63,323 nt of DNA from Candidatus Limnocylindrales bacterium (GTDB lineage: Bacteria; Chloroflexota; Limnocylindria; Limnocylindrales; CSP1-4). The stretch lies in NCBI GenBank assembly GCA_038327765.1, contig JBBQLI010000003.1:1-63323 (forward strand), given 5' to 3'. Positions 1,548 through 61,829 of this stretch are shown one piece after another. The notes below the pieces were generated by a model. It did no database searches, had not been told where the DNA came from, and saw only the letters and a program-made list of their open reading frames with translations. Position 1 is the stretch's first letter, and each line of letters starts with the position of its first letter. A program made the translations under genes and the position numbers.

Positions 1548-2585
1548 CTACGGCGAGGCGGTCACCTTGATCGATGCCACCATCTGATGGAGCGCCACCT
1601 GGTCTGCCGCGTGGCGGGTCGGGTTCGGAGCGACGCCACCCAACTCGTAGGGCGATGTCTCGGGGAAGTCCGTCGTCCGGATGACAAGGAGCGTCCCGTT
1701 GACATCGAGGATCCTGAATTGGACCTTGTACGCCGTCTTGTCCGTAGAGGCGGAGTAGGCGAGTGGGTAGGCATCGACGACCCCGGACTGCTTCGTCGTC
1801 CAGATAGTTGCACCCGGGCAATGGGCCAACGTGACGCTTGACGTCAGCTCGACCAGCTGACCGCTGTAGCCGCTGACCACGATCGGCGTGGGCGCCGCGA
1901 CCCTGAAACCGGGCCACGCACGCATGGCGTTCACGAGCCCGTCGACCGTCGATGTAGTCACAGGATCAAGGGTCCCCTTCTTTGGATCGCACGGATCCTT
2001 GGAGACGGCACCGACCGTCATGAACATCAGACCCCAGCCGGAGCCGGACGCGGCGTCCGGGCGGTCGACGAGCACGCCCTCGAAGTCGCTCGCCGGCTCC
2101 CATTGGGACCAACCAGCCGGCACCTCCAGCGTGATCTGGCCGGGCCAGACCGACGAACTCAAGCCGTACCTACCAGGCTTGAGACACTGCGCCGTATCGA
2201 GGGGGCAGGTCACCACGGGCGCGCTACTCAGGGAGGCCAGCGAGGGCGTTGGTGTGGGCTCGGGTGTAGGCGTCGGCGTCGGCGTCGGCGATGCCGTTGC
2301 CGGGACCGAGCCGACCACCGGACTGACGCGTCCGTTGTTGACGAATGCCGCGCCGACGACGACGGCAGCCACCACGACGGCAGCCACCAATCCCCATCGA
2401 GCGCGAGTCGAAGCTCGTGTGATCATGTCAAGCATCCTTTCCGTCGACCGGGCAGGACGAACCTGTCCGGTCCGAGGCAGGCTGGCATGGATCGCGTCGA
2501 TGACGCGATCGGGGAGCGGCGTCACTCCGTCGAACGATTCGAGGTAGTCCTCCAATCGACCGATGAAGTCGTCGTCCTTGTTCAT
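1548..2585 (-). CDS. Membrane-anchored putative anti-sigma factor with a Pro/Thr linker and an extracytoplasmic domain
   Basis: Its ATG overlaps the stop of the upstream ECF sigma gene (ATGA at 2582-2585). It has a short cytoplasmic N-terminus, one TM segment (WGLVAAVVVAAVVVGAAFV), a PTPTPTPTPEPTPTP linker and a ~230-aa C-terminal domain. There is no zinc-finger HxxxCxxC motif. Confidence 0.65.
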   Translation of the reverse strand: MNKDDDFIGRLEDYLESFDGVTPLPDRVIDAIHASLPRTGQVRPARSTERMLDMITRASTRARWGLVAAVVVAAVVVGAAFVNNGRVSPVVGSVPATASPTPTPTPTPEPTPTPSLASLSSAPVVTCPLDTAQCLKPGRYGLSSSVWPGQITLEVPAGWSQWEPASDFEGVLVDRPDAASGSGWGLMFMTVGAVSKDPCDPKKGTLDPVTTSTVDGLVNAMRAWPGFRVAAPTPIVVSGYSGQLVELTSSVTLAHCPGATIWTTKQSGVVDAYPLAYSASTDKTAYKVQFRILDVNGTLLVIRTTDFPETSPYELGGVAPNPTRHAADQVALHQMVASIKVTASP

Positions 2586-3130
2586 GCCGTGCCCGCGTTC
2601 CTTTCCAGACGCGCTTCGGCCTCGAAGGCCTCGCGCAGGTATTTCAGTGCGTAGTGCAGGCGGGAGCGGACCGTGCCGATGGGCGTCCCCATCGCGGCGG
2701 CCGCTTCCGCTGGAGAGAGTCCGACGTAGTGAACGAGGACGACCACGGTCCGGTGCTCGACGCCGAGCCGCCGGAAGGCCTGATCGAGCAGCTGGCGCGT
2801 CGACACGCCCGCCGTCGGATCCGAGTCACCCGGTGCATCGAATTCGAGCAGCCGGAGGTTGCCGCGATGACGTCGCTCACGGCGCGCTTCGGCGTGACAC
2901 GCATTCACGAGAAGCCGGTAGGCCCACGCTTCGAACCGGTCCGGGTCCTTGAGCCGGGGCAGGCCCTGCCATGCGTCGAGCAATGCCCGTTGCGTGGCGT
3001 CCTCGGCCAGGTACGGGTCGCGCAGGATCCGACGCGCGACCGAATGGAGGTGGTCGCCCACGCGTTCGACCAAGGCGTCGAACGCCGCCTCATCGCCGTG
3101 CATCGCTTGCTCGACGAGGATCCGCTCCAT
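2582..3130 (-). CDS. ECF (sigma-70 family group 4) RNA polymerase sigma factor
   Basis: Region 2 pattern: DEAAFDALVERVGDHLHSVARRILRDPYLAEDATQRALLDAWQGLPRLKDPDRFEAWAYRLLVNAC. Region 4 HTH: VVVLVHYVGLSPAEAAAAMGTPIGTVRSRLHYALKYLR. Confidence 0.9.
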   Translation of the reverse strand: MERILVEQAMHGDEAAFDALVERVGDHLHSVARRILRDPYLAEDATQRALLDAWQGLPRLKDPDRFEAWAYRLLVNACHAEARRERRHRGNLRLLEFDAPGDSDPTAGVSTRQLLDQAFRRLGVEHRTVVVLVHYVGLSPAEAAAAMGTPIGTVRSRLHYALKYLREAFEAEARLERNAGTA

Positions 3131-3572
3131 CTCTCACCCCTGGCCCGACCTGTCCGTTTGGCCGGTTCGCCGAGTATGAGTCGGCGTTCATCGGAATCAT
3201 TCAATCTGCGATCACCGAGATCGGCGCGTTCGGGCTCCGGTGAGAGGGCGAGCGACCGTCTCGCCAGTGGGTCCTCCGAGAGGTTCGCCTCGATGATCAC
3301 CGGCCCACGTGCCTCAAGCGGCACGAATCCTGGGGCGGTCGCCTCGGCATGGTGAAGCTCGTCCTCCGGCGGACCCGCTGATGGTCCGGCTCCTAATGCA
3401 TTCGGCCGTCTGGCTTGATCGACAGGCCCTTGGTGCATCGCTGCGCCACATCAAGGCGGCGGCACCCTTTGCATCGCCCGGAGGGCGTCGTATCGTCCAC
3501 GGTATCGCGATGGTTCCAGTCGGGCCGCCATGGGGTTCCCCGAGCCCGGCGCACACGGTGGAGGCACGGACG

Positions 3573-4418: not shown

Positions 4419-4764
4419 AGGGCCGGCGGGGATGGCAGGATCGGCGAACGCCAGCCAGGCCGGGACTGTCACGCTGGCCATTCCTGCCCGGCCTGCTCGG
4501 TGGATGGGTCGTGGATGGCTACCCCTCCCACGCCGACTGATCTGTCGAACCGGAGCGGGGCAGGTCTCATCCCCTCAACGGTGAGTGCCGTCCTCCTCGA
4601 GGCGGGGACACGCGAGGCTCATCCTCGACGCCCTCACGATTGACTCTCGCAAAGTGCCAGCGTAGGCTGCCGCCAATCGGTGAGGTCAACGACGGCGGCG
4701 GCGGAGCGCCGAGCCAGGACCATCGACATGACCTGGACCTGCTCCTCGAAGGAGAGGGCTGCAC

Positions 4765-7700
4765 ATGTGGGTCTGGGGGCGGTTCCCGGTCGGCGTGGCG
4801 TCTATCGTCGTCATCGTCGCCCTGCTTCTCGCCGCCTGCAGCCCGACTCCCGCCCCCACACCTAGCCCAAGCCGTGGCCCGAGCACCCCGCCAGCCTCGC
4901 CCTCGCCCTCGCCGTCGGCCTCGACCCCAGCCCCGGCTTCGGGAGATCTGGCCCTCGAGGCCTGCGATGTCACCGGCTACGTTCCCTGCGAGCACCAGGC
5001 AGTCCGGCTTTCCCTGCCGATCGCCGGTACTGGTGCGGCCCTGACCTATTCGAGCGAATGGGCCGCCGGTCGCAAGGATCGCCAGGGCTGGGATGCCTCG
5101 GCCATCGGTCTTGGGGGCTGGTCGCTGGATATCCTGCAGCGATACGATCCGAAGGCCGGGGTGCTGCTCTCCGGCGACGGGTCGTGGCGGTTCGCGAAGG
5201 GCGTGACCCTGCCCTCGGGCGAGCACGCGGTGCCGACCTACGACGGCCTGATGGCCTACGTGTTCGACTCGAATGGGCGCCACGTGCGCACCGTCGATGC
5301 ACTCCTTGGTGTGACCCTGATCACGTTCTCCTACGACGCGGCCGGCCGGCTCTCCGGGGCAGACGGGACGCTGGCGAGCGCGCCGATCCACCTCGTCGTC
5401 GAGCGCGAGGCTGACGGGACGCTCGCCGGCCTCGTCGGGCTCGACGGGGCCCGGACGTCGCTCTTCCTCGGCAGCGACGGCCTTCTCGGCGGGATCCAGG
5501 ATCCGGCGGGCCGCACTACCGTCCTCGAATACGGGTCCGGCGGCCTTGTCACCAACTACGACGACGCGACAGGAGGTGTGACGGCGTACGGGTATGACGA
5601 CGCCGGTCGTCTGGTCTCCGCGAAGGACCCCGACGGCGTCACGGTGACGACGACCCGCACCACGACCGCCGATATGACCGAGGTCAAGTCGACCACGACC
5701 CTCGGCCGCTCGGTCGCCTACCGTGCGGAGCGAACGGGCGCCGGAGTGATCCGATCCTATGTGGCGCCCGATGGAACCCGGACGACCGTGTCCTCCGATC
5801 CATCTGGGCGGTACGCGGTCGCGCTTCCCGATGGGACGACGATCGCGCTAGGTTCGCAGGCCGACCCGCGCTGGGGGATGGACGCTCCGATCGCGACGCC
5901 GGTGGACCAGACGCGGCCGGATGGCGTCGTCCGGCACACGACCACCGCCATCACTGCGACGACCTCGGCCACCGACCCGCTCGCCGTCAGCGCCTGGTCC
6001 CGTACCGACATCATCGCTGGCGGGACATGGAACCAGATGGTGGACCCCGCCACGCGAACGATCACGTGGGCCGACCCTGCCAGCCGGAAGACCACCCAGA
6101 CGTACGACGCGTCCGGTCGGATGGTCTCGCAGACCAGGCCGGGACAGCCCAGCCTTGCGTTCGTCTACGACGGACACGGCCGGCTTGCCACGAGAACCTT
6201 GGGGAGCGGCGCTGCCACCGCCACGACCACCTTCACCTACGGAACAGACGGCACCCTGACCATCACGGGTCCCGACCAGCTCGTCCAGCATCTGACGGCC
6301 GACTCCGTCGGACAGATCGTCCGCCGGACAGCTGCGGACGGCTCGACGGTCCTGTCCGCGTATGACGGGCTTGGGCGGCTCGTGCGCGTGGCACCCGCTG
6401 GCCAGCCATCCACCACCATCGGCTATAGCGCCGCCGGACGGCAGACCGGGTTCCTGCCTCCGACCATCGGCGCCGATGGCTCCTACGAGGTGCGAACGTA
6501 CGACACGGACGGGAGGTTGGCGGCCATCGCGGGACCTGGTCAGCGCTCGATCGCGTATACGCGCGACGCGGCTGGCCGCATCACCGGCTGGACCTTCGAC
6601 CAGGGCACGGCCACGGCCGTCTACGATCCGACCACAGGACTTGTCGTGAAGACCGCTGCGCCTGGTGGGATCGACACGCTGGTCTCGTACGTGGGCGGGA
6701 TCCGGGTCGGTCGCAACGTGTCCGGCCCGGTCGTCGGCGCGGTGGCCGTGAGCCTCGACCCGTTCGGCCGGATGGCCGGCGTGTCGGTCGATGGGGCGCC
6801 GCCGATCGGCTACACGTACGACACGGTCGGCTACCTCACGAGCGTGGGGGACGTCTCCCTGCAACGCGACCCGGCGAGCGGTCAAGTCGCGGGAGCATCC
6901 CTTGGCACTGGGCGGACCACACGCGAGTACGACGCCCAGGGGCGACCGACGCACATCGTCACAGCCGCGAACGGTTCGTCGGCCATGCTCGACGCTCGCT
7001 ATGCGTACGACCTGCGCGGGCGCGTCACGAGCGTGACCGAGGTGCGCGGCGGCGGCAAACCGACGAACACGACCTACGCATACGACGATGCGGGGCGTCT
7101 GGCCGAGGTCTCCGTGAACGGGATCTCTGTCGAGCGCGACGGCTACGACGCGGCCGGTAACCGCGTTTCCGTGAAGACCTCCTCCGGTACGCTCAAGGCC
7201 ACGTACGACGACCGCGACCGGTTGCTCTCCTGGGGGGCGGCCAGGTACGTCTCTCGGCCGGACGGGCAGCTCGCGAGCGTGGCCGCCGGGGACGCCAACA
7301 CCCGCTTCACGTTCGACGACTTCGGAGTCCTGCGAGCGGTAGCCCTCCCGGACGGGCGGCGGATCGAGTACTTCGTTGACGCGGGGGGCGCGCGGATCGG
7401 GAAGAGGATCGACGGCACGCTCGTGGCGGGCTATCTCTACCGGCCCGACGGTGCCCTTGCGGCGCAGACCGACGGCAGCGGCGCCGTGGTCGCGCGCTTC
7501 GGCTATGACGATGCCGGGCGGCTCACGCTCGTCGAGCGCGGGGGCACGCGCTACCAGGTGGTCACCGATCGCCTCAGCAGTCCGCTCCTCGTCATCGACG
7601 CGGGTACTGGCGCCGTGGCTGAGGCCATCACCTACGATGCTTGGGGCCAAGTCACCTCCGATACGAACCCGGGCTTCATCCCGATCGGTTTCGCCGGCGG

Positions 7701-9576
7701 GCTGCGCGATGCGGATACGGGTCTGGTCAGGTTCGGGGCGCGCGAATACGACCCGCGAACCGGCCGCTGGACCGGGCCCGACCCGATTCAGTACGCCGGC
7801 GCAGACTCGGTCCTCTACCGATACGTGGCGAATGATCCGGTCAACGGGACTGACCCGACGGGTCTCGCCTCATACGCGCACCAGCCGCCGGAATTCACGC
7901 CACCTCCGAGGGACGGAGGTCGATCGCATTTTCCGAGGTTGGGTAGCAAGGATCCCGAGGGCTCGAACCCGACACCGACCGGCGGCGAATGCTCGAACGA
8001 CGGCTCCGGCTGCAACCGCGGCGCTCATGCGCAGCCGCCGGATGATCCCGGCCCTGGGACCGGCCCCGGCCTCCCGCCACCGCCACGTGGCAGTGCACCC
8101 TTCACGTGCTTCGGGGTATGCAAGATGCCGGACGGCACAACCTGCTACGGGTACTGCCACAGCGGCGAACCACACGAACGGTCCGGTGACGGCGTCCCAT
8201 TCGAGTTCCAGGCGGCCGGCGAGTTCCAGATGGTCGCCTCGCCAGACCGGAGTGTCGTCATCCAGGCCCGCCTGGAACCGTACGGCACCTCGAACCGCGT
8301 GACGCTTGGCACCGCGGTCGCGGCTTCGGTGGCCGGCGATCGCGTGGCGGTCTATGCGAGCGACAAGGTGCCGCTTGCGATCGCGGGCAAGCCGGATACC
8401 CGACCCGATCTCTCGGTGCGCCTGCCGCATGGTGGGATCGTGGAGCGCCATGGCCCGGTCGTCACGATCTCATGGCCCGGCGGCAGCCAGCTCACCGTCT
8501 CGCGTGCCGGAAGCCACCTTGACTTCTCATTCGACCCGGATGCAGCAACAGCGCCGACACTCCGCGGCCTGCTCGGCAGTGCTGACGGCAACCCGACGAA
8601 CGATTTCACGACACGTGACGGCACCGTGATCGCCCACGACGATCCGGCGTTCGCCACGAAGGTCTATGACCTGTTCGGGGCAAGCTGGCGGATCACGCAG
8701 TCCGAGTCGCTCTTCGACTACGGGCCGGGCCAGAGCACGGCCACGTACACCAAGCCGGCGATCCCCACGGCACCGGCGACGATCGATGCGCTCGATACGA
8801 CGGCGCGCGGCAACGCGGAGACGCTCTGCCGCGCGATGGGCGTGAGCCTCGAACCCGTCCTGACCGACTGCATCCTTGATGTGGGGCTCACGGGCGACTC
8901 GTCATATGCGGCGTCCGCCGCCGCGGTCCAGGTGTCCACCACACGGGCCGCCGCCGAGCCCCCGGGCGCGGCAGCCGGGGCGTCCACGTTCGACCAGAAG
9001 GTCAGCGGCACGATCACGAAGCCTTCGCAGGTCGACAAGACGACCTTCACCGCGAAGGCCGGCGATGTGGTCTACCTCCGCGCCCAGGGAGTCTGCGTGC
9101 CGGGTCTGCAGTGGCAGCTCGTCGCTCCGTCCGGCACCCACCTCGGCCTCGACTACCTCTGCCGCGACCTGGGCCGCTTCGTGCTCCCGGACGCGGGCAC
9201 GTACACGGTCGAGGTCAACTGGGACCAGACGACGACCGGAGGGTATGCGTTCGAGATCATCGGTGCGCCCGTCGAGCGCATCGCGGCCTACAGGGTCGGC
9301 CAGACCATCAGCGATACGACGACCCGGATCGGCGAGTGGCACCGCTACACGTTCACGGCAAAGGCCGGCGATGTCGTGGTCCTCGACGGCCTGGGCGCCT
9401 GCGTCGACGGGCTGCTGTGGCGGCTCGTCGGCCCAGCTGGCAACATCATCCTGGGCCACTCGTGCGACGACCTGGGCCGGGTCGTGCTCCCCGACGGGGG
9501 CACCTACGGGGTCGAGGTCTATTCCGACGGCACCGCTACAGGGGCCTACGCATTCCAGGTCCGCGCCGGCCCGTGA
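4765..9576 (+). CDS. Lipoprotein-anchored RHS/YD-repeat protein with a vWD-like plus 2x PPC-like C-terminal region
   Basis: Lipobox VALLLAAC followed by a Pro/Thr/Ser linker. There are dozens of YD repeats (YDAAGRL, YDDAGRLV, YDASGRM, YDGHGRL, YDTDGRL and others). RHS core: RFGAREYDPRTGRWTGPDPIQY...NDPVNGTDPTGL, ending at aa 1034 (nt 7866). This is followed by 569 aa containing GEPH (aa 1134-1137, vWD GDPH-like) and two ~70-aa repeats (TFTAKAGDVV...GGYAFEI / GAYAFQV). Confidence 0.9.
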   Translation: MWVWGRFPVGVASIVVIVALLLAACSPTPAPTPSPSRGPSTPPASPSPSPSASTPAPASGDLALEACDVTGYVPCEHQAVRLSLPIAGTGAALTYSSEWAAGRKDRQGWDASAIGLGGWSLDILQRYDPKAGVLLSGDGSWRFAKGVTLPSGEHAVPTYDGLMAYVFDSNGRHVRTVDALLGVTLITFSYDAAGRLSGADGTLASAPIHLVVEREADGTLAGLVGLDGARTSLFLGSDGLLGGIQDPAGRTTVLEYGSGGLVTNYDDATGGVTAYGYDDAGRLVSAKDPDGVTVTTTRTTTADMTEVKSTTTLGRSVAYRAERTGAGVIRSYVAPDGTRTTVSSDPSGRYAVALPDGTTIALGSQADPRWGMDAPIATPVDQTRPDGVVRHTTTAITATTSATDPLAVSAWSRTDIIAGGTWNQMVDPATRTITWADPASRKTTQTYDASGRMVSQTRPGQPSLAFVYDGHGRLATRTLGSGAATATTTFTYGTDGTLTITGPDQLVQHLTADSVGQIVRRTAADGSTVLSAYDGLGRLVRVAPAGQPSTTIGYSAAGRQTGFLPPTIGADGSYEVRTYDTDGRLAAIAGPGQRSIAYTRDAAGRITGWTFDQGTATAVYDPTTGLVVKTAAPGGIDTLVSYVGGIRVGRNVSGPVVGAVAVSLDPFGRMAGVSVDGAPPIGYTYDTVGYLTSVGDVSLQRDPASGQVAGASLGTGRTTREYDAQGRPTHIVTAANGSSAMLDARYAYDLRGRVTSVTEVRGGGKPTNTTYAYDDAGRLAEVSVNGISVERDGYDAAGNRVSVKTSSGTLKATYDDRDRLLSWGAARYVSRPDGQLASVAAGDANTRFTFDDFGVLRAVALPDGRRIEYFVDAGGARIGKRIDGTLVAGYLYRPDGALAAQTDGSGAVVARFGYDDAGRLTLVERGGTRYQVVTDRLSSPLLVIDAGTGAVAEAITYDAWGQVTSDTNPGFIPIGFAGGLRDADTGLVRFGAREYDPRTGRWTGPDPIQYAGADSVLYRYVANDPVNGTDPTGLASYAHQPPEFTPPPRDGGRSHFPRLGSKDPEGSNPTPTGGECSNDGSGCNRGAHAQPPDDPGPGTGPGLPPPPRGSAPFTCFGVCKMPDGTTCYGYCHSGEPHERSGDGVPFEFQAAGEFQMVASPDRSVVIQARLEPYGTSNRVTLGTAVAASVAGDRVAVYASDKVPLAIAGKPDTRPDLSVRLPHGGIVERHGPVVTISWPGGSQLTVSRAGSHLDFSFDPDAATAPTLRGLLGSADGNPTNDFTTRDGTVIAHDDPAFATKVYDLFGASWRITQSESLFDYGPGQSTATYTKPAIPTAPATIDALDTTARGNAETLCRAMGVSLEPVLTDCILDVGLTGDSSYAASAAAVQVSTTRAAAEPPGAAAGASTFDQKVSGTITKPSQVDKTTFTAKAGDVVYLRAQGVCVPGLQWQLVAPSGTHLGLDYLCRDLGRFVLPDAGTYTVEVNWDQTTTGGYAFEIIGAPVERIAAYRVGQTISDTTTRIGEWHRYTFTAKAGDVVVLDGLGACVDGLLWRLVGPAGNIILGHSCDDLGRVVLPDGGTYGVEVYSDGTATGAYAFQVRAGP

Positions 9577-17531: not shown

Positions 17532-18281
17532 CTACGGGGCGGTCACCTGCGTTCCATGCGGATCGAGCAGCTGGTCGATCCGGCCCTGGACGAGGTCCAC
17601 GGTCGCGATCCATTCCGTGCTGTCGACATCGAGCGGCACCTGCGCCCACGTCTGGCTGATCTGCGCGTGGACACCCGTCGCCGGGTCCACCGTTTCGGCG
17701 GTGACGAAGACGGGCGTGATCCGGCCGATCGTCGCGCCACGGCCCAGGAGGGCGCTCGTCCGCGGGTCGGCCTTGACCAGCGTGATCGCCTTCGCGCTGA
17801 GCTCGGCTGAGAGCTGTGGCCCCTGGTAGACCTTCGTGACCGCCCGATTCCGAAGATCGACGTTGACCGTCACCGCCTGTCCATGGGTACCGGTGACGAC
17901 CACGGTCGCCACGTCGTCCACGACGCTCGTGACTGTCGCGATGGAGACGTCTCCGCGCAGGATCGCCGTCACCTGCGGGTCGTTGCGTGCCAGGTCCGCC
18001 GCCTGTGTCGTACTCAGCTGGCCGGGCAGCACGGTCTGGACGACCACGACGGCGACGAGCGCCAGCGTCACGGCGGCCGCAACGACGAACGCGGGCCGAG
18101 CCCGCCCTCGCCGCGCCGTCGAGCCGGCCGGCAGCCGCTGCCCGCGGGTCGCCACCTCGGCGCTGATCCGGGGCCACAGGTCGGTGGTCTCGGGGATGGC
18201 CTGGACCGCGATGGTCGCGAGCGTCTGACCAAGGATCTGCTCATGCATGTCGGTGGCTCCTGGCTTCGAATCCATCGTCAT
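17532..18281 (-). CDS. Membrane-anchored putative anti-sigma factor
   Basis: The ATG at 18281 overlaps the stop of the ECF sigma gene (ATGA). It has a single TM segment (PAFVVAAAVTLALVAVVVVQTV) followed by an extracytoplasmic domain. Confidence 0.68.
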   Translation of the reverse strand: MTMDSKPGATDMHEQILGQTLATIAVQAIPETTDLWPRISAEVATRGQRLPAGSTARRGRARPAFVVAAAVTLALVAVVVVQTVLPGQLSTTQAADLARNDPQVTAILRGDVSIATVTSVVDDVATVVVTGTHGQAVTVNVDLRNRAVTKVYQGPQLSAELSAKAITLVKADPRTSALLGRGATIGRITPVFVTAETVDPATGVHAQISQTWAQVPLDVDSTEWIATVDLVQGRIDQLLDPHGTQVTAP

Positions 18282-18835
18282 TCCGCCTGGGCACCGAGCC
18301 ATGCCCGGAGCTTGGCCCGTGCCGCAAAGAGCCGCCAGCGCACGGTCGCCGACGGCGTGTCGAGCTTGTCTGCGATCTCTGCGTCGCTCAAGCCCACGAA
18401 ATAGCGCAGGACCACGGCCGCCCGTTGCCGGGCGGGCAACCGACCGAGCATCGCCCACACGGCCGTCGCGTCTTCGGCCTGCTCGAACAGTGCTTCGGGT
18501 CCGGCCGCGGGGTCGATGAGGATCGTCGCCGGGCCGCCCTCTTCGACGTCGCGGTCGAGCGAGTCCGTTCGCCGGCCACGCTGGACGGCCTTGATCGCGT
18601 CGTTGGCGACACTCCGCAGGAACCACGGCCCGAAGGCCGCGTTCGAGTCGAACTGGGCGACTCTCTCATACGCCCGGATGAATGCCGACTGGGTGATGTC
18701 CTCGGCAAGGGCTCGGTCGCGGACGATGAGGTAGGCCGTCCGGATCGCCTGGAGCTGATAGGCGTCGACCAGGGCCGCAAGGCCGCCGATGTCGCCGTCC
18801 TTCAGTCTCGCGATCGAAGCGCGTTCGACGCTCAC
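18278..18835 (-). CDS. ECF RNA polymerase sigma factor
   Basis: Region 2: LAALVDAYQLQAIRTAYLIVRDRALAEDITQSAFIRAYERVAQFDSNAAFGPWFLRSVANDAI. Region 4: AVVLRYFVGLSDAEIADKLDTPSATVRWRLFAARAKLR. Confidence 0.9.
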   Translation of the reverse strand: MSVERASIARLKDGDIGGLAALVDAYQLQAIRTAYLIVRDRALAEDITQSAFIRAYERVAQFDSNAAFGPWFLRSVANDAIKAVQRGRRTDSLDRDVEEGGPATILIDPAAGPEALFEQAEDATAVWAMLGRLPARQRAAVVLRYFVGLSDAEIADKLDTPSATVRWRLFAARAKLRAWLGAQAE

Positions 18836-18947
18836 CGGACCTCCATGGATGTGGCGCTCGTGCCGGGCGCCTACCCGTACTATCCGCGAGGGAGGCAGGA
18901 TGTTTGATGGACGTCCCCGCCCGACGCGAGGACGCTAGGATGCCGCC

Positions 18948-53172: not shown

Positions 53173-54045
53173 ATGCCGGACCTGAACCGCGAGATCGCGC
53201 CGCCGACGAGGCACGTGACGAATCGGCGGATCCTCGCGGTCCGTGGCGATTCCCTCGAGGTGCGTGATGACCGGATCGTCGGCGAGGCGCCGCTGGAGAT
53301 CCGCGCCGCGGGGCCACACCAGCACCCGGTGGCAGTCGCAGTCACGATGCGGACGCCCGGCCACGAGGACGAGCTGGCGGTCGGCTTCCTCTGCACAGAG
53401 GGCCTGATCGACGGGGCCGCGGTGGTCTCCACCAGGCACGGCGACCCGTCAGCGCTCAGCCAGCCCGACGACACGATCGTGGTCAGGCTGTCACGCGCCT
53501 TCGACGATTCGAAGGTGGCCGAACGCCATTTCATCGCGACCGCCTCGTGCGGGATCTGCGGCAAGGCCTCGATCGATGAGGTCGCGTTGCGCATCGACCC
53601 GATCCCCGACGGCCCGGTGGTGAGTCGATCGGTGATCCTGGCCCTGCCCGACCTCCTGCGTACCGCCCAGAAGGCGTTCGACGAGACCGGCGGTCTCCAT
53701 GCGGCCGGTCTGTTCGCTCCCAACGGCGAACTCGTGGTCCTGCGCGAAGACGTCGGGCGACACAACGCGCTCGACAAGGTCATCGGTTCGCAGGTGCTCG
53801 CCGGTGCACTCCCCCTCCACGAACGGATCCTGATGGTGTCTGGCCGGGTCAGCTTCGAGCTCGTGCAGAAGGCCGCCGCGGCCGGGATCCCGATCGTGTG
53901 CGCTGTGTCGGCGCCCTCGGACCTCGCGATCGAGACCGCCGAGCGACTCAACGTGACCCTGGTCGGCTTCCTGCGCGGCACGGGGTTCAACATCTATGCG
54001 CATGACGCCCGGATCGACTTGCGCGACCTTTCCGGCTGGGGCTGA
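53173..54045 (+). CDS. fdhD: Formate dehydrogenase accessory sulfurtransferase FdhD
   Basis: FdhD motifs: EDELAVGFLCTEGLI, the catalytic-loop ASCGICGK, and GRHNALDKVIG. Confidence 0.9.
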   Translation: MPDLNREIAPPTRHVTNRRILAVRGDSLEVRDDRIVGEAPLEIRAAGPHQHPVAVAVTMRTPGHEDELAVGFLCTEGLIDGAAVVSTRHGDPSALSQPDDTIVVRLSRAFDDSKVAERHFIATASCGICGKASIDEVALRIDPIPDGPVVSRSVILALPDLLRTAQKAFDETGGLHAAGLFAPNGELVVLREDVGRHNALDKVIGSQVLAGALPLHERILMVSGRVSFELVQKAAAAGIPIVCAVSAPSDLAIETAERLNVTLVGFLRGTGFNIYAHDARIDLRDLSGWG

Positions 54046-54978: not shown

Positions 54979-54993
54979 GCCGATCGTTTCGCC

Positions 54994-55350
54994 TCAGAAG
55001 AGGCGGCCACCATCCGGGACGGGCCGCTCGGGGCGGACCAGCACCACGGCGCCGTCCGCGTCTGGGAACCCCAGCGTCAGCACCTCGGAGATGACCGTGG
55101 CGATCTGGCGCGGCGGAAAGTTGATCACGGCCGCGACCTGTCGGCCGATGAGCGCGTCGGGCGAGTAGTGGACGGTGATCTGCGCCGAACTGCGCTTCAC
55201 CCCAAGCTCCGGGCCGAAATCGATCTCGAGACGGATCGCCGGCCTGCGCGCCCCCTTGAGCGGTTCGGCCGCCACGATCGTCCCCACCCGGATATCGACA
55301 CGTTCGAAGTCGTCGATCCCGATCACGGGTCGACCGCCCGCGTCGCTCAT
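54994..55350 (-). CDS. csaA: tRNA-binding (EMAP/Trbp111-fold) protein CsaA
   Basis: FERVDIRVGTIVAAEPL...LEIDFGPELGVKRSSAQIT...LIGRQVAAVINFPPRQI is the CsaA pattern. The ATG at 55350 overlaps the upstream stop (ATGA). Confidence 0.84.
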   Translation of the reverse strand: MSDAGGRPVIGIDDFERVDIRVGTIVAAEPLKGARRPAIRLEIDFGPELGVKRSSAQITVHYSPDALIGRQVAAVINFPPRQIATVISEVLTLGFPDADGAVVLVRPERPVPDGGRLF

Positions 55351-56408
55351 CGGCGTGGCTTCGGTGGTCGCTCGTTGACGAATTCGAAGCCGAAGCGCCC
55401 CTTGATGCAGAGATGGCCTTCGGTCACGGATGAGTCGAGTGGCGATGTGACCTTGAGGATCTTCTCGTCCTGGACGTGAAGCTCCACGGCGCAGCCCACA
55501 CCGCAATACGGGCAGATGGTCTCGGTCACCGTCTGCTGGGACGGATCCCACGTGCCGGCGGCGCGCATGTCGTACTCGGGCTTGGCCATCAGGGCACCCG
55601 TCGGACAGACCCCGATGCAGTTGCCGCAGTAGACGCAGGCACTCTCCGGCAGCGGGACGGCCTGTTCGGTGGAGATCCGGGCGTCGAACCCGCGCCCCGC
55701 GACCGCGATCGCGAAGGTGTTCTGGGCGTCCTCACCGCAGGCTTCGACGCACTTGTAGCAGAGGATGCAGCGCGAGTAGTCGCGGACGTAGAGGTTGTTG
55801 TCGACCTTGGTCGGCTGGGCGACGGTGGCCGCCGCCGCATCGCCACCGGGTGCGTGATGGTGACCCGCCTCGTTCGCATCCCGTTCGCCGGCCGCTGCCG
55901 GCTGAGCCGGCGGTCCGTAGCGTGTCGGATCGGCGCCGTAGCGCTGGGCGTATGCCGCCACGGAACCATCCGGCACTGCCGCACCCGCGAGCGAGATGTC
56001 CACCGACGAACCGAGGAATTCCAGGACCATCTTGCGCGACGTCCGAACGCGCTCCGAATCGGCCTGGACGTCCATCCCTGCTTCCACGGGCCGCGAGCAG
56101 GCCGGGACCAGGACACGCGATCCCGTGACTTCCACCACGCACACGCGGCAGACGTTCACTGGCGTCAGGTTCTCGGCGTAGCACAGGGTCGGGGTGTCGA
56201 TGCCCTGCTGTCGGCATGCACCGAGGATCGTCGTCCCTGCGGGGACGGTCACGGTCTCGCCGTCGATGGTGAGGGCGATCTGGGGTGGCGCCTCGACGAC
56301 CGGCGCGGCTGGCGCTCGCGATGCCCGTGCCGGCGGATCAAGCAGGATCGACGAGAGCGGCGGCGACACGGTCTCGTCGAATCGCGCGGGGCCAGGATCG
56401 TGGGTCAC
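55347..56408 (-). CDS. Formate dehydrogenase alpha, N-terminal Fe-S half only (2Fe-2S, 2x 4Fe-4S and Mo-bisPGD-type 4Fe-4S domains)
   Basis: LTIDGETVTVPAGTTILGACRQQGIDTPTLCY...CRVCVVEV (2Fe-2S). CILCYKCVEAC and CVYCGNCIGVCP (4Fe-4S). ICPYCGVGCAVEL...GHLCIKGRFGFEFV (MopB N-terminal cluster). It then stops after NERPPKPRR. The GTG at 56408 overlaps the NuoEF-like stop (GTGA). Confidence 0.85.
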   Translation of the reverse strand: MTHDPGPARFDETVSPPLSSILLDPPARASRAPAAPVVEAPPQIALTIDGETVTVPAGTTILGACRQQGIDTPTLCYAENLTPVNVCRVCVVEVTGSRVLVPACSRPVEAGMDVQADSERVRTSRKMVLEFLGSSVDISLAGAAVPDGSVAAYAQRYGADPTRYGPPAQPAAAGERDANEAGHHHAPGGDAAAATVAQPTKVDNNLYVRDYSRCILCYKCVEACGEDAQNTFAIAVAGRGFDARISTEQAVPLPESACVYCGNCIGVCPTGALMAKPEYDMRAAGTWDPSQQTVTETICPYCGVGCAVELHVQDEKILKVTSPLDSSVTEGHLCIKGRFGFEFVNERPPKPRR

Positions 56409-58255
56409 AGGGTCACCAGCTCGGGCTGTCGGAGCGCGGATTCGATGGCCGACGAGGCCGTCTGGCCCAGACCGCAGATCGAGGCGTCGCGCATCACCTG
56501 GCCGATCTCCCGGAGGAGCGCCAATTCCTCGTCCCGCGGCCGGACGCGTGAACCTGCCGCCATGCGTGCCATCAGTTCTTCCTGGCGGACCGTCCCCACC
56601 CGGCACGGGACGCACTGCCCGCAGGACTCATCGCGGAAGAACTGCGCGATCCGGCGCAAGGTCCCGACCAGATCCGCGGTCTCGTCGAAGACCATGATCA
56701 CGCCCGAACCGAGGGTCGCGCCGGTCGCACGGGTCGCTTCCATCGTGAGCGGCATGTCGAGCGCATCCGGTCCGACGAACACGCCCGCGGCACCACCGAG
56801 CAGCACGGCCTTGAGGGCACGGCCACCCGCGATGCCGCCGGCCATCTCGATCAGCTCGCCCAGAGTGGCACCGAAATCCACCTCGTACGTGCCCGGTCGT
56901 TCGACATTGCCGGACAGGCAGAAGAGTTTCGGCCCCGTCGAACCCTCGGTACCGATCCGGGCGAAGGCGTCGCCACCCATCGTCATCAGCAACGGCACGT
57001 TGACCAGCGTTTCGATGTTGTTGACGACGGTCGGCTTGCCGAACAGCCCCTTCTCGACCGGGAATGGCGGCTTGTTGCGCGGCTCGCCGCGCTTGCCCTC
57101 GATCGACTCGAAGAGCGCCGTCTCCTCGCCGCAGATATAGGCGCCCGCCCCGCGGCGAAGCTCGATATCGAAGGCGAAGTCCGAACCGGCGATGGCTGGG
57201 CCGAGCATCCCGGTCGCGCGGGCTGCAACCAGCGCCGCGGTGATGCGCATCTCGGCCTCGGGGTACTCGCCGCGCAGGTAGATGAACCCCATCGAGGATC
57301 CTGTCGCAAACGCGGCGATCGTCATCGCTTCGACGATGGCGAACGGGTCGCCCTCGATCAGGACCCGATCCTTGAAGGTCCCGGGCTCGGATTCGTCGGC
57401 GTTGCAGATGACGTAATGCGGCTGCGCGGTCTGGGCCGCGACGGCCGCCCACTTGCGACCCGTCGGGAAGGCCGCTCCGCCACGGCCCTGCAGCTTCGAC
57501 GCGCTGACTTCAGCGAGGACTGCCTCCGGGCCGATCTCGAGGGCACGGGTCAAGCCTGCGTAGCCGCCATGCGCGCGGTACTCGTCGATCGAGCCCGGGT
57601 CGACGACGCCGATGCGACCCAGCAGGCGCAGGCCCGCTTGCCGTTGCTGGCGGATCGGCTCGGAGGCTCGTGGCACGCCGCCGCCGCTCTCGAGTCGCGC
57701 CACGACCCCGGCTGCATCGACCGGCGCGATGGTCACGGTCGTTGGCCGCTCCCCGGCCGACGTGATCATCGCGGCCGGCGCCAGCTCGCACAGGCCCAGG
57801 CAGGGAGAGCGCAGCCAGGTCGTTCGGCCTTCTCCATCGGGCGTCCCAGCGATACCGCGGGCGCGTTCGAGGTCCTCGCAGATACGCTCCGCGCCAGCGA
57901 GCCGGCAGGCGATGTCGTCGCAGACGTGCGCGACGACCGGTGGTCGTGGCTTCGTTGCGTACAGGGCATAGAACGTGGCCACGCCATACGCCTCGGCAGG
58001 TGGCACGGCCAGGCGCTTGGAGATGTAGTTGAGTGCCGGCTGGCTGATCCAGCCGATCCGGGACTGGACCGCATGCAGCGCGGGCAGCAGCTGCGAGCGT
58101 CGTGCCCGGATGGCGTGCCCACCCTCGGCGGCGTGCCCATCGGTAGCGCTATCGCGTCGACCGCCGACCCAGCCGGACTCGGGCTGACCGAGGACCGCGT
58201 CCACCGCGGCCCGTTCGGCCGTTGATGCAAGCGGCCCGATGACGTGCAGATCCAT
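56405..58255 (-). CDS. NuoE-NuoF-like fusion: NAD(H)-binding FMN/Fe-S diaphorase subunit of formate dehydrogenase
   Basis: NuoE-like 2Fe-2S: VCDDIACRL...SPCLGLCELAP. NuoF motifs: GRGGAAFPTGRKW, ICNADESEPGTFKDR and ESCGQCVPCRVG. The start is the ATG at 58255 or the GTG at 58294. Confidence 0.88.
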   Translation of the reverse strand: MDLHVIGPLASTAERAAVDAVLGQPESGWVGGRRDSATDGHAAEGGHAIRARRSQLLPALHAVQSRIGWISQPALNYISKRLAVPPAEAYGVATFYALYATKPRPPVVAHVCDDIACRLAGAERICEDLERARGIAGTPDGEGRTTWLRSPCLGLCELAPAAMITSAGERPTTVTIAPVDAAGVVARLESGGGVPRASEPIRQQRQAGLRLLGRIGVVDPGSIDEYRAHGGYAGLTRALEIGPEAVLAEVSASKLQGRGGAAFPTGRKWAAVAAQTAQPHYVICNADESEPGTFKDRVLIEGDPFAIVEAMTIAAFATGSSMGFIYLRGEYPEAEMRITAALVAARATGMLGPAIAGSDFAFDIELRRGAGAYICGEETALFESIEGKRGEPRNKPPFPVEKGLFGKPTVVNNIETLVNVPLLMTMGGDAFARIGTEGSTGPKLFCLSGNVERPGTYEVDFGATLGELIEMAGGIAGGRALKAVLLGGAAGVFVGPDALDMPLTMEATRATGATLGSGVIMVFDETADLVGTLRRIAQFFRDESCGQCVPCRVGTVRQEELMARMAAGSRVRPRDEELALLREIGQVMRDASICGLGQTASSAIESALRQPELVTL

Positions 58256-58320
58256 GGTCACCGAGTGTAGCGACGCGGTGACCGAGCCGGGCACATCGTC
58301 CCGGGGCGGCGCGGTGGAAG

Positions 58321-58340
58321 CGTGTGCTACCGTGTGCTAC
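58321..58340 (+). promoter_or_regulatory. Perfect tandem 10-bp direct repeat abutting the vapB start; candidate antitoxin operator
   Basis: CGTGTGCTAC CGTGTGCTAC lies immediately 5' of the ATG at 58341, in the divergent region between the diaphorase gene and vapB. Confidence 0.3.
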
Positions 58341-58649
58341 ATGAGCGAAATGGCGCACCGGCCGGCGCGCGTCGGGGTACGCGAGCTACGCCAGAACCTC
58401 AGCGTCTACCTGGAGCGCGTCAAGGCGGGTGAGACGCTCGAGGTGACCGACCACGGGCAGCCCGTCGCGCGCCTGGATCCGATCCCTGTGGAACCGATGT
58501 CGATCATCGACCAGATGATCGCGGATGGTCGCGCGACGGCAGCCACCTTCGACCACCGGCTCATCCCGCCGCCGCTGCCGAACCCTGACCCCGACGGGCC
58601 TACGCTCACCGAGATCCTGCTCCAGATGCGCGACGAGGATGACCGGTGA
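58341..58649 (+). CDS. vapB: Phd/YefM-type antitoxin (VapB)
   Basis: RVGVRELRQNLSVYLERVKAGETLEVTDHGQPVARLDP is the typical antitoxin N-terminus. Its stop overlaps the vapC GTG (GTGA). Confidence 0.8.
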   Translation: MSEMAHRPARVGVRELRQNLSVYLERVKAGETLEVTDHGQPVARLDPIPVEPMSIIDQMIADGRATAATFDHRLIPPPLPNPDPDGPTLTEILLQMRDEDDR

Positions 58650-59035
58650 AACTGGCCTACGTCGATTCGTCGGCGCTCGCGAAACTCATCCTTGACGAAG
58701 CCGATGCCAGCGCGATGCGTCGCTGGTATGTCGAGGCAGAGCAGGTCGCGTGCAGCGTCGTGGGCACCATCGAAACCCGGCGAGCGGTCGCCCGAAAGGT
58801 CGACGCTCCTGATCGTGTGGATCTGATCCTTCGTTCGGTGATCCGGCTCGACATCGACGCCGGCATCGCCAGGGTCGCGGCTGCGCTGCCGCCGTTGGCT
58901 CTGCGGACGCTTGATGCGATCCATCTCGCGTCGGCGCTTACATTGATCAGCGAACTCGACGCATTCGTGACCTATGACGACCGGCTCGCTGCCGCGGCGC
59001 GAACCGTCGGTCTCCCGGTCATCCGGCCGGCCTGA
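58646..59035 (+). CDS. vapC: PIN-domain toxin VapC
   Basis: MKLAYVDSSALAKLIL...TLDAIHLASAL...DAFVTYDDRL contains the PIN acidic residues. Confidence 0.85.
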   Translation: MKLAYVDSSALAKLILDEADASAMRRWYVEAEQVACSVVGTIETRRAVARKVDAPDRVDLILRSVIRLDIDAGIARVAAALPPLALRTLDAIHLASALTLISELDAFVTYDDRLAAAARTVGLPVIRPA

Positions 59036-59037
59036 CC

Positions 59038-59445
59038 ATGCCGACCGATGCCGAGCGAGCGATCGAGCTGTTCGAGATCGCGGGCGATCACGATTCGGCC
59101 GGCCGCGAGACCGATGCCGAAGGCCCGTATCGGGAGGCGATCGCACTCGGGCTGCCGCCGGACCTTGACGTGCGCGCCCATATCCAGCTCGCCAGCACGC
59201 TGCGCAATCTCGAACGGTTCGACGAGGCGGTCGCGATCCTGCGCGAGGTCACGGCGGCTCACCCGGAGCACCGCGCCGCACGGATGTTCCTCTCGCTGGC
59301 GCTGGTCAGCGACGGGCAGGGCGCCGCGGCCGTGCACGAATTGCTTGACGTGCTTCTGACGAACCCCGGACCGCCCGAGCGCTATGCGCGGTCCCTGCGC
59401 TGGTACGCCGACGACCTCGTCGGCAAGGTGTCGGGGGAGGACTAG
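59038..59445 (+). CDS. Small tetratricopeptide-repeat protein
   Basis: TPR-like helices: AERAIELFEIAGDHDSAGRETDAEGPYREAIALG and ASTLRNLERFDEAVAILREVTAAHPEH. Confidence 0.62.
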   Translation: MPTDAERAIELFEIAGDHDSAGRETDAEGPYREAIALGLPPDLDVRAHIQLASTLRNLERFDEAVAILREVTAAHPEHRAARMFLSLALVSDGQGAAAVHELLDVLLTNPGPPERYARSLRWYADDLVGKVSGED

Positions 59446-59762
59446 GCGCCGGGCGCCCGATAGGTCGGGTGCAGCTTGACTGCGTCGTCGATGTCCTCGG
59501 CCGTCAGGAGCACGACCGTACTGATCGAGACGCTCCCAGCGGCGCCGGTGGTGGCCGCGAGGGCTGCCGCAGCCGCCTGGCTCGGCAGGTCCGCGAGGAC
59601 GTAGAAATCGTCCGTGCCGAACGCCCAGTACATCTCGTCGACGTGCCCACCAAGGCTCTTGGCGAGCGCATCGACCGCCTTGCGTCGACCGGTGCCGCCG
59701 TCCTTCAGGACGCCCTGGATACCGGCCTGGGTATACGAACCGTGGAACAGGTACTTCGCCAT
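59442..59762 (-). CDS. GYD-domain protein
   Basis: MAKYLFHGSYTQAGIQGVLKDGGTGRRKAVDALAKSLGGHVDEMYWAFGTDDFYVLADLP is the GYD-family pattern. Confidence 0.8.
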   Translation of the reverse strand: MAKYLFHGSYTQAGIQGVLKDGGTGRRKAVDALAKSLGGHVDEMYWAFGTDDFYVLADLPSQAAAAALAATTGAAGSVSISTVVLLTAEDIDDAVKLHPTYRAPGA

Positions 59763-59858
59763 CGCGCGCGCCTCCAATGGGTGTCGGGATCGACCGCTGG
59801 CACGCATCGTGGCACTGACCTGCGCCGCCGACAAGGACGTTGCGGAACTGACATCGGG

Positions 59859-61772
59859 TCAGGTCGTGAGGGGCTCCCCGAGCTTCTCGATACGGATGGC
59901 CGTGGCTTTGAATTCGGCCGTGCCGGACTTCGGGTCGGTGGCGTCGATCGTGAGCAGATTGACGGCCACCTCGTCCTGGAAGTGCATCGTCATGAAGGTC
60001 AATCCGGGCCGCAGTGACGGATCGGTCCGGACCCCGACCTCCACCTGCCCGCGCCGCGACACGACCCGGACGACCTCGCCCTCGGCCAGAGCGAACCGCG
60101 CGACATCCTCGGGCGACATGTCCAGCGACTCGCCGCGGCGCAGCGGGGAGGTGTAGCCGGCGGTCTGGACGCCCGTGTTGTACGAGTCGAGCCGACGGCC
60201 CGTGGTGAGCCGGATCGGGAAGTCCGCATCGAGCTTGTCGACGGGCGGGTCGTGGTCGACCGGCACGAACGGCACACGGTTGCCGGGCAGCGGGTCTTCC
60301 CACAGCCGGCTGTGCAGGTACAGCTCGCCCGGGTGGGTCTCGTCCCAGCATGGCCACTGGAGACCGCCCTCGTTCGCGAGGCGCGCGTAGCTCATCCCGG
60401 CATGGACCGGGGACAGGCGCCGGACCTCGTTCCAGACCGTCTCCGGATCCGGCTCGCCCCACGCCCCGCCCATCCGGTTGGCCAGCTCGAAGATGATCGC
60501 GAGATCGTCGCGGGCGCCGTCCGGCGGAGCGACGGCCTTGCGGACGCGTTGGACCCGTCGCTCTGAGTTGGTGACGGTGCCCTCGCTCTCGGCCCAGGCC
60601 GCCGTGGCCGGGAAGACGACGTCGGCGAGCTCCGCGGTCTTCGTCAGGAACAGATCCTGGACCACCAGGAAGTCGAGGCCCTGCAGCAGGTGGATCGCCT
60701 TCTTCTGGTCCGCCTCCGACTGGACCGGGTTCTCGCCGATGCAATAGACCGCGGTCAGGTCGCCGCGCTCCATCGCCTCGAACATCCCGGATAGGTGCCA
60801 GCCGCGCTTGGGCGGGACGGTCACACCCCATTCAGCATCGAAGCGGGCGCGGATCGCATCGTTCTCGACGTGCTGGAACCCGACGAGCCGATCGGGGAGG
60901 GCGCCCATGTCGCCGCCACCCTGGACGTTGTTCTGGCCCCGGAGCGGATTGACGCCACTCCCATAGCGACCGATATGTCCGGTGAGCAGGACCAGCGAGA
61001 TGAGCGCCAGGACGTTGTCGACCGCGTTGTGGTGCTCGGTGATGCCAAGGGTCCAGCAGATCATCGCGCGCGGAGCTGTCGCGAACGCATGGGCGAGGTC
61101 GCGGATCGCCGCGGCGGGCACCCCGGTCTCGCGCTCCGCGTATTCGAGGGTGTACGACTCGACCTTGGTCTTGTACGCCTCGAACCCCTCGGTCGAGTGC
61201 TCGATGAATGCCTTGTGGTGGAGGTCGGCCGCGATGATCTCGCGCGCCATCGCGTTGGCCAGGGCGATGTCGGAGCCGACATCGAGACCCAGCCAGCCAT
61301 CGGCCCATTCCGCGGACGAGGTCCGGCGCGGGTCGATCGCGTAGAGCTTCGCGCCCTTGTTGACGGCCTTGAGGACGCGATGGAAGAAGATCGGATGTGT
61401 CTCACGGGCATTGCTGCCCCAGAGGACGATCAGATCGGTGTCCTCGACCTCACGGTATGAACTTGTGCCACCACCGGCACCGAACACGGTCGCCAGACCG
61501 GCGACACTCGGGGCGTGTCAGGTGCGGTTGCAGCTGTCGATGTTGTTGCTGCCCAGGATCGTCCGGCTGAACTTCTGTGCCGCGAAGTTGACCTCGTTGG
61601 TCGCCTTGCTGCAGCTGAAGGTGCCGAAGGTCGTCGGGCCGTGGGCGGCCTTCGCCGCCCGGAACCCGGCGACCGTTCGATCGAGCGCCTCGTCCCAGGT
61701 CGCGGGACGCAGCTCGCCGTCCTTCGTGTCGCGCACGAGAGGCTGGGTCAGTCGCATGTAGGGTTTCGCCAC
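59859..61772 (-). CDS. fdhA: Formate dehydrogenase alpha, catalytic Mo/W-bisPGD half, selenocysteine-containing (TGA at 61518-61520 read as Sec)
   Basis: ORFs 61518-61772 and 59859-61487 are in the same frame. The joined product reads ...GSNNIDSCNRT-U-HAPSVAGLATVFGAGGG..., parallel to E. coli FdhF ...CCARV-U-HGPSVAGL. Other MopB motifs are present (NPLRGQNNVQGGGDMGALP; GENPVQSEAD). It has its own GTG start at 61772, 7 nt after AGGAGG (61780-61785). Confidence 0.85.
61489..61505 (-). other. Bacterial SECIS-like hairpin downstream of the fdhA UGA
   Basis: On the minus strand: UGA, 12 nt, then GUCGCC-GGUCU-GGCGAC (6-bp stem). GGU CUG occupies codons +7/+8 after UGA, the same offset as the GGUCUG apical loop of the E. 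coli fdhF SECIS. Confidence 0.6.
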
Positions 61773-61829
61773 TCGATGGCCTCCTGCGAAAGCGATGACC
61801 CGTCGAGTGTACCGCTCCCTAGCGTCGCC

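Follow-up and report, generated by a model that had tools for sequence, protein, structure and literature searches.

The locus studied here raises the question of whether a formate dehydrogenase (FDH) whose catalytic α-subunit is encoded in two pieces, with the piece that normally comes first lying last, is a working enzyme or the debris of one. The window is a 63,323-nucleotide stretch of contig JBBQLI010000003.1 (assembly GCA_038327765.1) from a Candidatus Limnocylindrales bacterium. On its reverse strand, the gene for the catalytic part of FDH alpha, which binds molybdenum or tungsten through bis(pyranopterin guanine dinucleotide) (bisPGD) and is termed the Mo half, is followed by a gene for a NuoE-NuoF fusion (NuoEF) and then by a gene for the Fe-S half of the same subunit (Table 1). 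A preliminary description of this DNA left the choice between a natural two-piece, permuted selenocysteine (Sec) FDH and a snapshot of operon rearrangement around the insertion of a toxin-antitoxin (TA) module. The answer starts from features that are seen directly in the DNA, namely the gene content, the split point, the synteny, the Sec codon with its downstream hairpin and the purifying selection.

The exactness of the split was determined by tiling the two proteins against an FDH model and a one-piece enzyme. TIGR01591 (Fdh-alpha, 672 positions) matches the Fe-S half with positions 1-51 (residues 297-347) and the Mo half with positions 52-672 (residues 6-628), and jointly the two proteins cover positions 1-672. 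The Fe-S half scored 54.9 bits and the Mo half 629.6 bits, the latter below the cutoff of 666.25, a shortfall that may be explained by the absence from the Mo half of the first 51 positions carried on the Fe-S half. Rhodobacter capsulatus FdsA (6TG9_A, 958 residues) is divided likewise, with residues 5-304 aligning to the Fe-S half and residues 308-932 aligning to the Mo half. The break lies between the cluster domain FS0, which holds a [4Fe-4S] cluster, and the first pterin-binding domain, with no loss and no duplication. These alignments uphold the earlier claim of an FDH alpha split at the junction of its Fe-S and Mo-bisPGD parts with the halves permuted.

The Mo half has 637 codons counting Sec, and its only Pfam domains are Molybdopterin and Molydop_binding; it has no Fe-S domain. 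Its best PDB matches are FdhF/FdhH-type subunits (E = 1e-132 to 1e-138). Alignment to FdhF and FdsA locates the Sec-His metal-ligand dipeptide in CNRT-U-HAPSVAGL and the RGQ arginine in NPLRGQNNVQG; the Sec/Cys-His and RGQ/RGH motif classes are those given in PMC8808070. The NuoG-like Fe-S extension is a separate 353-residue protein that lacks a Molybdopterin domain, ends in ...GHLCIKGRFGFEFVNERPPKPRR-TGA and is encoded 3' of nuoEF instead of being fused to the catalytic subunit. The four FS0 cysteines (C299, C302, C306 and C334) are located on this protein and not at the N terminus of the Mo half, and so is the CxK motif (LCIKG), which includes the fourth of them. The lysine of CxK is the relay between pterin and cluster in Escherichia coli FdhH, and to our knowledge the FS0 domain and Cys-x-Lys are at the N terminus of the catalytic polypeptide in every characterised FDH. 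Domain E-values at the locus range from 1e-19 to 1e-70, so chance domain matches are not an issue. The view that both halves look like functional cistrons also found support. The Mo half has its own ribosome-binding site, the GTG start of the Fe-S gene overlaps the nuoEF stop codon as GTGA, and both reading frames are intact. The Mo half, NuoEF and the Fe-S half all have a ratio of nonsynonymous to synonymous substitution rates (dN/dS) of 0.12-0.25, which indicates that all three are under purifying selection.

Related loci were collected by a scan of one genome per species of GTDB, which yielded 80 loci with 10-kb flanks on which the window proteins were mapped by tblastn. Taxon names are the titles of metagenome-assembled genome (MAG) records, with some bins probably carrying the wrong label. 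The order Mo half, NuoEF, Fe-S half on one strand was found in 61 of the 80 loci, on contigs of up to 2 Mb titled Chloroflexota/Limnocylindria, Actinomycetota, Acidobacteriota, Planctomycetota and others; the upstream sequence is too short to judge the presence of a Mo half in 14 more. A compact three-gene operon, with 4-224 bp between the Mo half and nuoEF, is present in 33 loci titled Actinomycetota, Acidobacteriota, Isosphaeraceae, Gemmata, Vulcanimicrobiota, Thermomicrobiaceae and some Limnocylindrales (44 bp in L005, 6 bp in L042). The split point is the same throughout. The Fe-S open reading frame (ORF) ends 0-43 residues past an F(V/T)(N/Q) motif, except in L020 and L026, which look like assembly errors. 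The Mo ORF starts 4-6 residues before RLTxPLVR, and the sequence upstream is unconserved and has no cysteine (Fe4S4) motif.

Protein searches gave the same picture. Matches to the Fe-S half are stand-alone proteins of about 330-390 residues (one exception has 485) with the same domains and no Molybdopterin domain, and at least 120 clusters are at least 78% identical to it, the named ones belonging to Candidatus Limnocylindrales or Chloroflexota. A second search with a planctomycete homologue as query returned at least 120 further stand-alone proteins of 287-392 residues; cultured carriers were sought with this query, and the matches listed comprised only metagenome- or MAG-derived proteins. 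Of the listed representatives clustered at 50% identity, none with about 770-1400 residues, the length of a one-piece alpha, exceeds 46% identity to the Fe-S half; this list is dominated by fragments and gave no clean tree. In addition to its split operon, the contig of L040 carries a canonical one-piece Sec-FdhA that unites the Fe-S and Mo parts and has the TGA, with nuoE and nuoF as individual genes after it (L040:9517-14528, reverse strand). Since both forms are held on one contig, the split form is a distinct paralogous family. Separate Fe-S and molybdopterin guanine dinucleotide subunits in this order are routine among the relatives, so the arrangement is ordinary for the clade. This split point, order and TGA are shared by dozens of independent assemblies that span several phyla, which bears out the first option of the preliminary description, a natural two-piece, permuted Sec-FDH. 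Judged from these loci, the split, reordered FDH is the normal layout of a widespread soil-bacterial family in several phyla, and the compact order alpha-1, beta, alpha-2 would be its ancestral operon.

All 57 loci in which the active-site codon is readable have TGA there. A hairpin of consensus GUCGYC-GGUCU-GRCGRC, resembling a Sec insertion sequence (SECIS), lies 12 nt 3' of the UGA; standard pairs occupy 270 of 270 cells in 45 distinct sequences, with compensatory changes in two pairs (C-G to G-C and C-G to U-A). In slid-hairpin controls, no more than 16-80% of cells were paired. Though it spans synonymous sites, the loop GGUCU does not vary in nucleotides. A candidate lower stem, CCGAG...TTCGG, was rejected on a variable column without covariation. 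An Rfam scan of the whole window returned no match, and thus no curated SECIS or tRNA-Sec. The reading frame 3' of the TGA has a dN/dS of 0.13-0.23. The 84 codons 5' of the UGA (window 61521-61772) have a synonymous substitution rate (dS) of 0.14-0.21 compared with 0.61-0.63 in the rest of the gene when L004 and L005 are the references, and their dS is also lower against L008 and L016, a small sample that hints at RNA-level constraint upstream of the Sec codon.

The machinery for Sec is encoded beside the operon in many relatives. ARAGORN located tRNA-Sec upstream of the Mo half and within a few kb of it in 13 of 60 loci, and selB, selA and tRNA-Sec in one direction with selD in the other are directly upstream of the Mo half in about 20 relatives (for example, L004:410-4752). 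The order in L005 is selB (942-2738), selA (2738-4105), tRNA-Sec (4129-4227) and selD (4268-5296), with the Mo half beginning at 6167. The place of the sel genes is occupied in the window by a gene for a DegT/DnrJ-type aminotransferase, and the contig ends 1.5 kb on. The same region (61830-63323) has a methyltransferase-like C-terminal fragment, which was recognised by eye and has no Pfam match. Neither the DegT-type gene nor this fragment was found in any relative's flank.

The Fe-S half contains 16 cysteines that are invariant in 80 family members. These are assigned to a [2Fe-2S] site (C76, C87, C90, C104), two [4Fe-4S] sites (C214/217/220/224 and C258/261/264/268) and FS0 (C299/302/306/334). 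Across the whole family, SSVDISLAG... stands where FdsA and NuoG have their His-ligated cluster motif, HPLDCxxCxxxGxC. A conserved insert, YGADPxR(Y/F)G...GERD...GHHH, follows the degenerate motif (window 55854-55940, residues 157-185); H184 is present in 99% of 80 sequences, and the insert is missing only in L055. This insert could be a metal site or a docking surface. NuoEF has 629 residues and matches the NCBIfam models for NuoF (3.8e-136) and NuoE as well as PDB entries. Its C terminus is 6 residues past the NADH_4Fe-4S domain, without a C-terminal ferredoxin extension. NuoEF is not of the bifurcating HydB type because the protein ends right after the NuoF 4Fe-4S domain and lacks the 2x[4Fe-4S] portion.

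These features point, with a probability of roughly 0.85, to a cytoplasmic NAD(P)+-linked Sec Mo/W-bisPGD FDH of three polypeptides of the Fdh1AB/FdsABG kind. Alpha-1 would be the catalytic protein, with Sec85-His, the RGQ arginine, both pterin-binding domains and no Fe-S cluster. Beta would be the NuoE-NuoF fusion with [2Fe-2S], flavin mononucleotide (FMN) and [4Fe-4S] sites, and alpha-2 an Fe-S protein resembling the NuoG N terminus whose last ~55 residues form the FS0 [4Fe-4S] domain and the Cys-x-Lys relay. We infer assembly in trans, NAD+ as the acceptor and the direction of catalysis. The alpha-2 FS0 domain would dock onto alpha-1 and complete its domain I. Electrons would then pass from formate to the Mo/W-pterin, FS0, the two [4Fe-4S] clusters with the [2Fe-2S] cluster alongside, the NuoF [4Fe-4S] cluster, FMN and NAD+. 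The sulfido ligand of the metal would be supplied by FdhD, an accessory sulfurtransferase whose gene adjoins the operon in most related loci and lies immediately 5' of the Mo half in several Actinomycetota loci.

The preliminary description regarded all genes between the two halves, the diaphorase gene nuoEF included, as foreign. The diaphorase gene is part of the operon and not an interruption because Mo half-NuoEF-Fe-S half is the conserved compact order. On the evidence of the relatives, only the genes for the GYD-domain protein, the tetratricopeptide repeat (TPR) protein and VapBC are lineage-specific among the genes between the FDH pieces. In 28 loci, nearly all titled Chloroflexota, Chloroflexia or Limnocylindria (L002 is Saccharimonadales), the Mo half and nuoEF are 0.6-7 kb apart. 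The content of this spacer differs between genomes and includes GYD (7 loci), VapBC (8-9 loci), an uncharacterised protein and an antiporter-like membrane protein; glyoxalase-like, SRPBCC-like and methyltransferase genes were recognised by eye. This pattern marks the spacer as an apparent insertion hot spot in Limnocylindria. A GYD gene on the operon strand lies between the Mo half and nuoEF in 8 genomes (L004, L008, L011, L013, L023, L031, L062 and the window), beside the Mo half in some and beside nuoEF in others, and GYD may be a clade-specific accessory gene instead of random cargo.

The vapB and vapC genes overlap by 4 nt with the antitoxin first, in keeping with the type II gene layout of VapBC. 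Homologues are found at the same place and in the same orientation in L008, L011, L016, L017 (vapB only), L021, L023 and L062, and L012 is also listed with a VapC homologue between the Mo half and nuoEF. Compared with the window, VapBC has a dS of 0.8-2.0 and a dN/dS of 0.15-0.38, and the flanking Fe-S and NuoEF genes have a dS of 0.9-1.1. VapBC is therefore an old resident and not a fresh insertion, since it has diverged at synonymous sites as far as the FDH genes around it. There is no marked anomaly in GC content, and a small dip to 0.65 at vapC is not diagnostic of foreign origin. The presence of VapBC in at least 8 Limnocylindria loci, its age by dS and the conserved compact operon elsewhere disagree with a snapshot of rearrangement around a TA insertion, the second option of the preliminary description. 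The vapB and nuoEF genes diverge across ~50-90 bp, and the layout is identical in L017. A tandem direct repeat, GTGTGCTAC-C-GTGTGCTAC (58322-58340), lies within this region just before the vapB ATG (58342); it is a possible operator of VapBC, and transcription of nuoEF and the Fe-S gene could respond to it as well. The enzyme is probably made from two transcription units here because GYD, TPR and VapBC fill the spacer between alpha-1 and beta. Limnocylindria may use two transcription units, one of which shares the divergent control region with vapBC.

The alternatives to a three-polypeptide FDH were weighed against the same data. One is recent rearrangement or decay, in which a one-piece fdhA was broken and shuffled by TA and other insertions and one or both halves are non-functional remnants. 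The opposite-strand VapBC and TPR genes between the halves and the insertions that only the window has at either end of the cluster (DegT upstream, CsaA and GDT1 downstream) are what such an event could leave; however, the identical split point and order occur in insert-free compact operons of several phyla, the dN/dS of the FDH genes speaks against decay, and the dS and distribution of VapBC speak against a recent insertion, which together make this history highly improbable. A chimeric join that placed the catalytic half upstream of the Fe-S half is hardly credible. The window is a single metagenome-type contig and its Fe-S protein is recorded on one contig only, but the order recurs in 61 independent assemblies with contigs of up to 2 Mb, and individual junctions recur as well: Mo half-GYD in L004, VapB divergent from nuoEF in L017, and Mo half-vapC in L008, L016 and L021. 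The genes could also belong to separate enzymes, with NuoEF and the Fe-S protein forming an NADH-linked module for another partner and the Mo protein using a different acceptor. The up to 7 kb that separates the units in Limnocylindria would fit this arrangement, as would the five loci with an Fe-S gene, with or without NuoEF, and no Mo half within 8-10 kb. It is improbable nonetheless: the Mo protein would have no Fe-S cluster as electron exit, the Fe-S protein carries Molybdop_Fe4S4, a domain for which we know of no role apart from a Mo-bisPGD subunit, the two proteins tile FDH models exactly, and the three genes form a compact operon in 33 loci.

The complex might instead act on another substrate (e.g. 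nitrate or a formyl-methanofuran-type compound) or be an electron-bifurcating complex and not a simple formate:NAD+ oxidoreductase. The Mo half falls below the TIGR01591 cutoff and matches the NasC (1e-118) and NasA (1e-108) models, and subunits of bifurcating enzymes head the NuoF-like matches in the PDB. Against this, the 51 model positions found on the Fe-S half may account for the missing score, the Sec-His and RGQ motifs are present, FdhD is linked in most loci and NuoF lacks the C-terminal 2x[4Fe-4S] of HydB-type subunits; we consider such a function very improbable. The assignment as a three-polypeptide FDH has several observations to contend with. A consensus scan of 55.0-62.2 kb for sigma-70 promoters and terminators gave none above shuffled background. 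The 63-kb window contains no sel gene and no tRNA-Sec, ARAGORN having detected no tRNA at all, and for this reason Sec decoding in this genome is taken from conservation. Five loci (L026, L028, L055, L066, L080) have no Mo half in 8-10 kb upstream, which shows that the coupling of the Fe-S gene to the Mo half is not absolute. Within 10 kb of its Fe-S gene, L066 lacks both NuoEF and a Mo half; L026, L028, L055 and L080 have nuoEF as well as the Fe-S gene but no Mo half within 8 kb upstream. AlphaFold2 prediction of the Fe-S half alone from a 41-sequence alignment gave a mean predicted local distance difference test score of 54 and a predicted template modelling score of 0.44, too poor for a fold search.

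Among characterised enzymes, MeFDH1 and FdsABG(D) come closest to the predicted three-polypeptide FDH. Methylorubrum extorquens Fdh1AB (MeFDH1; 7VW6, 7E5Z), to which the locus has sequence matches, is likewise a cytoplasmic, NAD+-linked metal FDH with a NuoE-NuoF-type fusion as beta, insofar as the biochemistry of the locus can be predicted from its sequence. According to PMC13397495, Fdh1A holds one [2Fe-2S] and three [4Fe-4S] clusters, the complement predicted for the split alpha here. MeFDH1 differs in that alpha is one polypeptide of ~990 residues with a Cys-W site, whereas here alpha consists of two polypeptides flanking beta, with a Sec ligand. FdsABG(D) of R. capsulatus and Cupriavidus necator (6TG9, 6TGA) shares the NuoE-, NuoF- and NuoG-like modules, Mo-bisPGD and an FdhD-type maturation factor. 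FdsA is in one piece with Cys and an extra His-ligated [4Fe-4S] motif, and FdsG and FdsB are separate proteins, whereas NuoE and NuoF are fused here; FdsD belongs to that system and was not searched for at this locus. E. coli FdhH (1AA6) and FdhF of the Thermoanaerobacter kivui hydrogen-dependent CO2 reductase (7QV7) share the Sec/Cys-His active site and the fold of the Mo half but have their own N-terminal FS0 (CxxCxxxC...CxK, residues 1 to ~60), and the Mo half begins at the equivalent of residue 61.

Divided relatives of these enzymes also exist. The Mo/W-bisPGD catalytic unit of formylmethanofuran dehydrogenase, FwdB/FwdD, is naturally divided into two polypeptides; that split is at the C-terminal domain IV and FS0 remains on the catalytic chain, unlike here. 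The locus itself has an NCBIfam match to TIGR03129. In HylABC-FdhF2 of Gottschalkia acidurici, a NuoG-like Fe-S protein and the FDH catalytic subunit have separate genes, and the former functions together with NuoE- and NuoF-like subunits; FdhF2 retains its own FS0, and the complex is proposed to be bifurcating. The literature covered, which includes a 2022 FDH phylogeny and a 2026 review and was only incompletely accessible, contained no FDH whose FS0 is on another polypeptide than the catalytic core or whose genes are in this order. The Sec-FDH of mycobacteria in PMC13449736 is of the FdoG type.

The features of the locus are collected in Table 1. A gene for a GDT1-family cation transporter follows the CsaA-like gene (54391-55350 together) and lies between the Fe-S gene and fdhD; neither the CsaA-like gene nor the GDT1 gene has a counterpart in any of the 80 related loci. 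Elsewhere in the window, a gene encodes an RHS-repeat/YD-shell protein of ~1600 residues that is possibly a polymorphic toxin, and two genes encode extracytoplasmic function (ECF) sigma factors. The remainder consists of ordinary chromosomal genes for glycosyltransferases, PGA_cap, a GMC oxidoreductase, a glycogen-branching-type amylase, a luciferase-like monooxygenase and an AlkZ-like glycosylase.

Table 1. Coordinates of the split FDH locus and of other features in the window.
Feature	Position	Strand	Evidence and context
Mo half (catalytic Mo/W-bisPGD part of FDH alpha)	59859..61772	-	PF00384, 7e-70; PF01568, 7e-25
AGGAGG ribosome-binding site of Mo half	61780..61785	-	7 nt 5' of GTG start; sequence reading
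In-frame TGA (Sec codon, metal-ligand position)	61518..61520	-	CNRT-U-HAPSVAGL
SECIS-like hairpin GUCGCC-GGUCU-GGCGAC	61489..61505	-	Begins 12 nt 3' of UGA
GYD-domain gene	59442..59762	-	PF08734; directly 3' of Mo half
TPR_5 gene	59038..59445	+	PF12688; after vapC, opposite strand; homologue at same place in L002
VapC, PIN-domain toxin	58646..59035	+	PF01850
VapB, Phd/YefM antitoxin	58342..58649	+	PF02604
NuoE-NuoF fusion (NAD(H)/FMN diaphorase subunit)	56405..58294	-	PF01257, PF01512, PF10531, PF10589
Fe-S half of FDH alpha	55347..56408	-	Fer2_4; two ferredoxin-type Fer4 motifs; Molybdop_Fe4S4 (PF04879, 1.5e-19)
CsaA-like tRNA-binding-domain gene	54994..55350	-	ATG overlaps Fe-S half stop as ATGA
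FdhD, accessory sulfurtransferase	53173..54045	+	PF02634; NF001943, 271.8 bits (cutoff 269)
ECF sigma factor gene	18278..18934	-	
RHS-repeat/YD-shell protein	4732..9576	+	
ECF sigma factor gene	2582..3133	-	

The order of the genes is an unlikely product of simple fission because fission would put the Fe-S half immediately 5' of the Mo half. Purely as a hypothesis, the order could have arisen from tandem duplication of a fused fdhA-nuoEF operon, if the first copy then lost its 5' part and the second copy its 3' part. In L040 the order is fused fdhA, nuoE, nuoF. Although the arrangement in the window is ordinary for its clade, the architecture of the clade appears to be undescribed, and it is very common in soil metagenomes. 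We tentatively propose, at slightly less than even odds, that the family is an undescribed multi-phylum class of metal-FDH in which the Fe-S subunit, on the side of the diaphorase, provides the Mo-proximal [4Fe-4S] cluster and the Lys relay in trans. This subunit also has the conserved GERD...GHHH insert, specific to the family, where the His-ligated cluster would be. Having alpha in two pieces may allow synthesis, maturation and regulation of the Sec/Mo subunit to proceed apart from the electron-transfer module.

If this proposal is true, the Mo-bisPGD core and the first electron-transfer cluster can occupy different chains, which has a bearing on the engineering of modular CO2 reductases and on models in which NuoG originated from an Fe-S protein and an FDH-like protein. 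Neither half passes a curated FDH model, and existing names for the Fe-S half are '2Fe-2S cluster-binding protein', 'HndD' and 'YjgC'. As a result, annotation may under-call the capacity of abundant soil lineages to oxidise formate, and those affected would include Limnocylindria, Acidobacteriota, Actinomycetota and Planctomycetota. The operon adjoins selABCD in relatives and is probably the main reason that these aerobic soil bacteria retain the Sec machinery.

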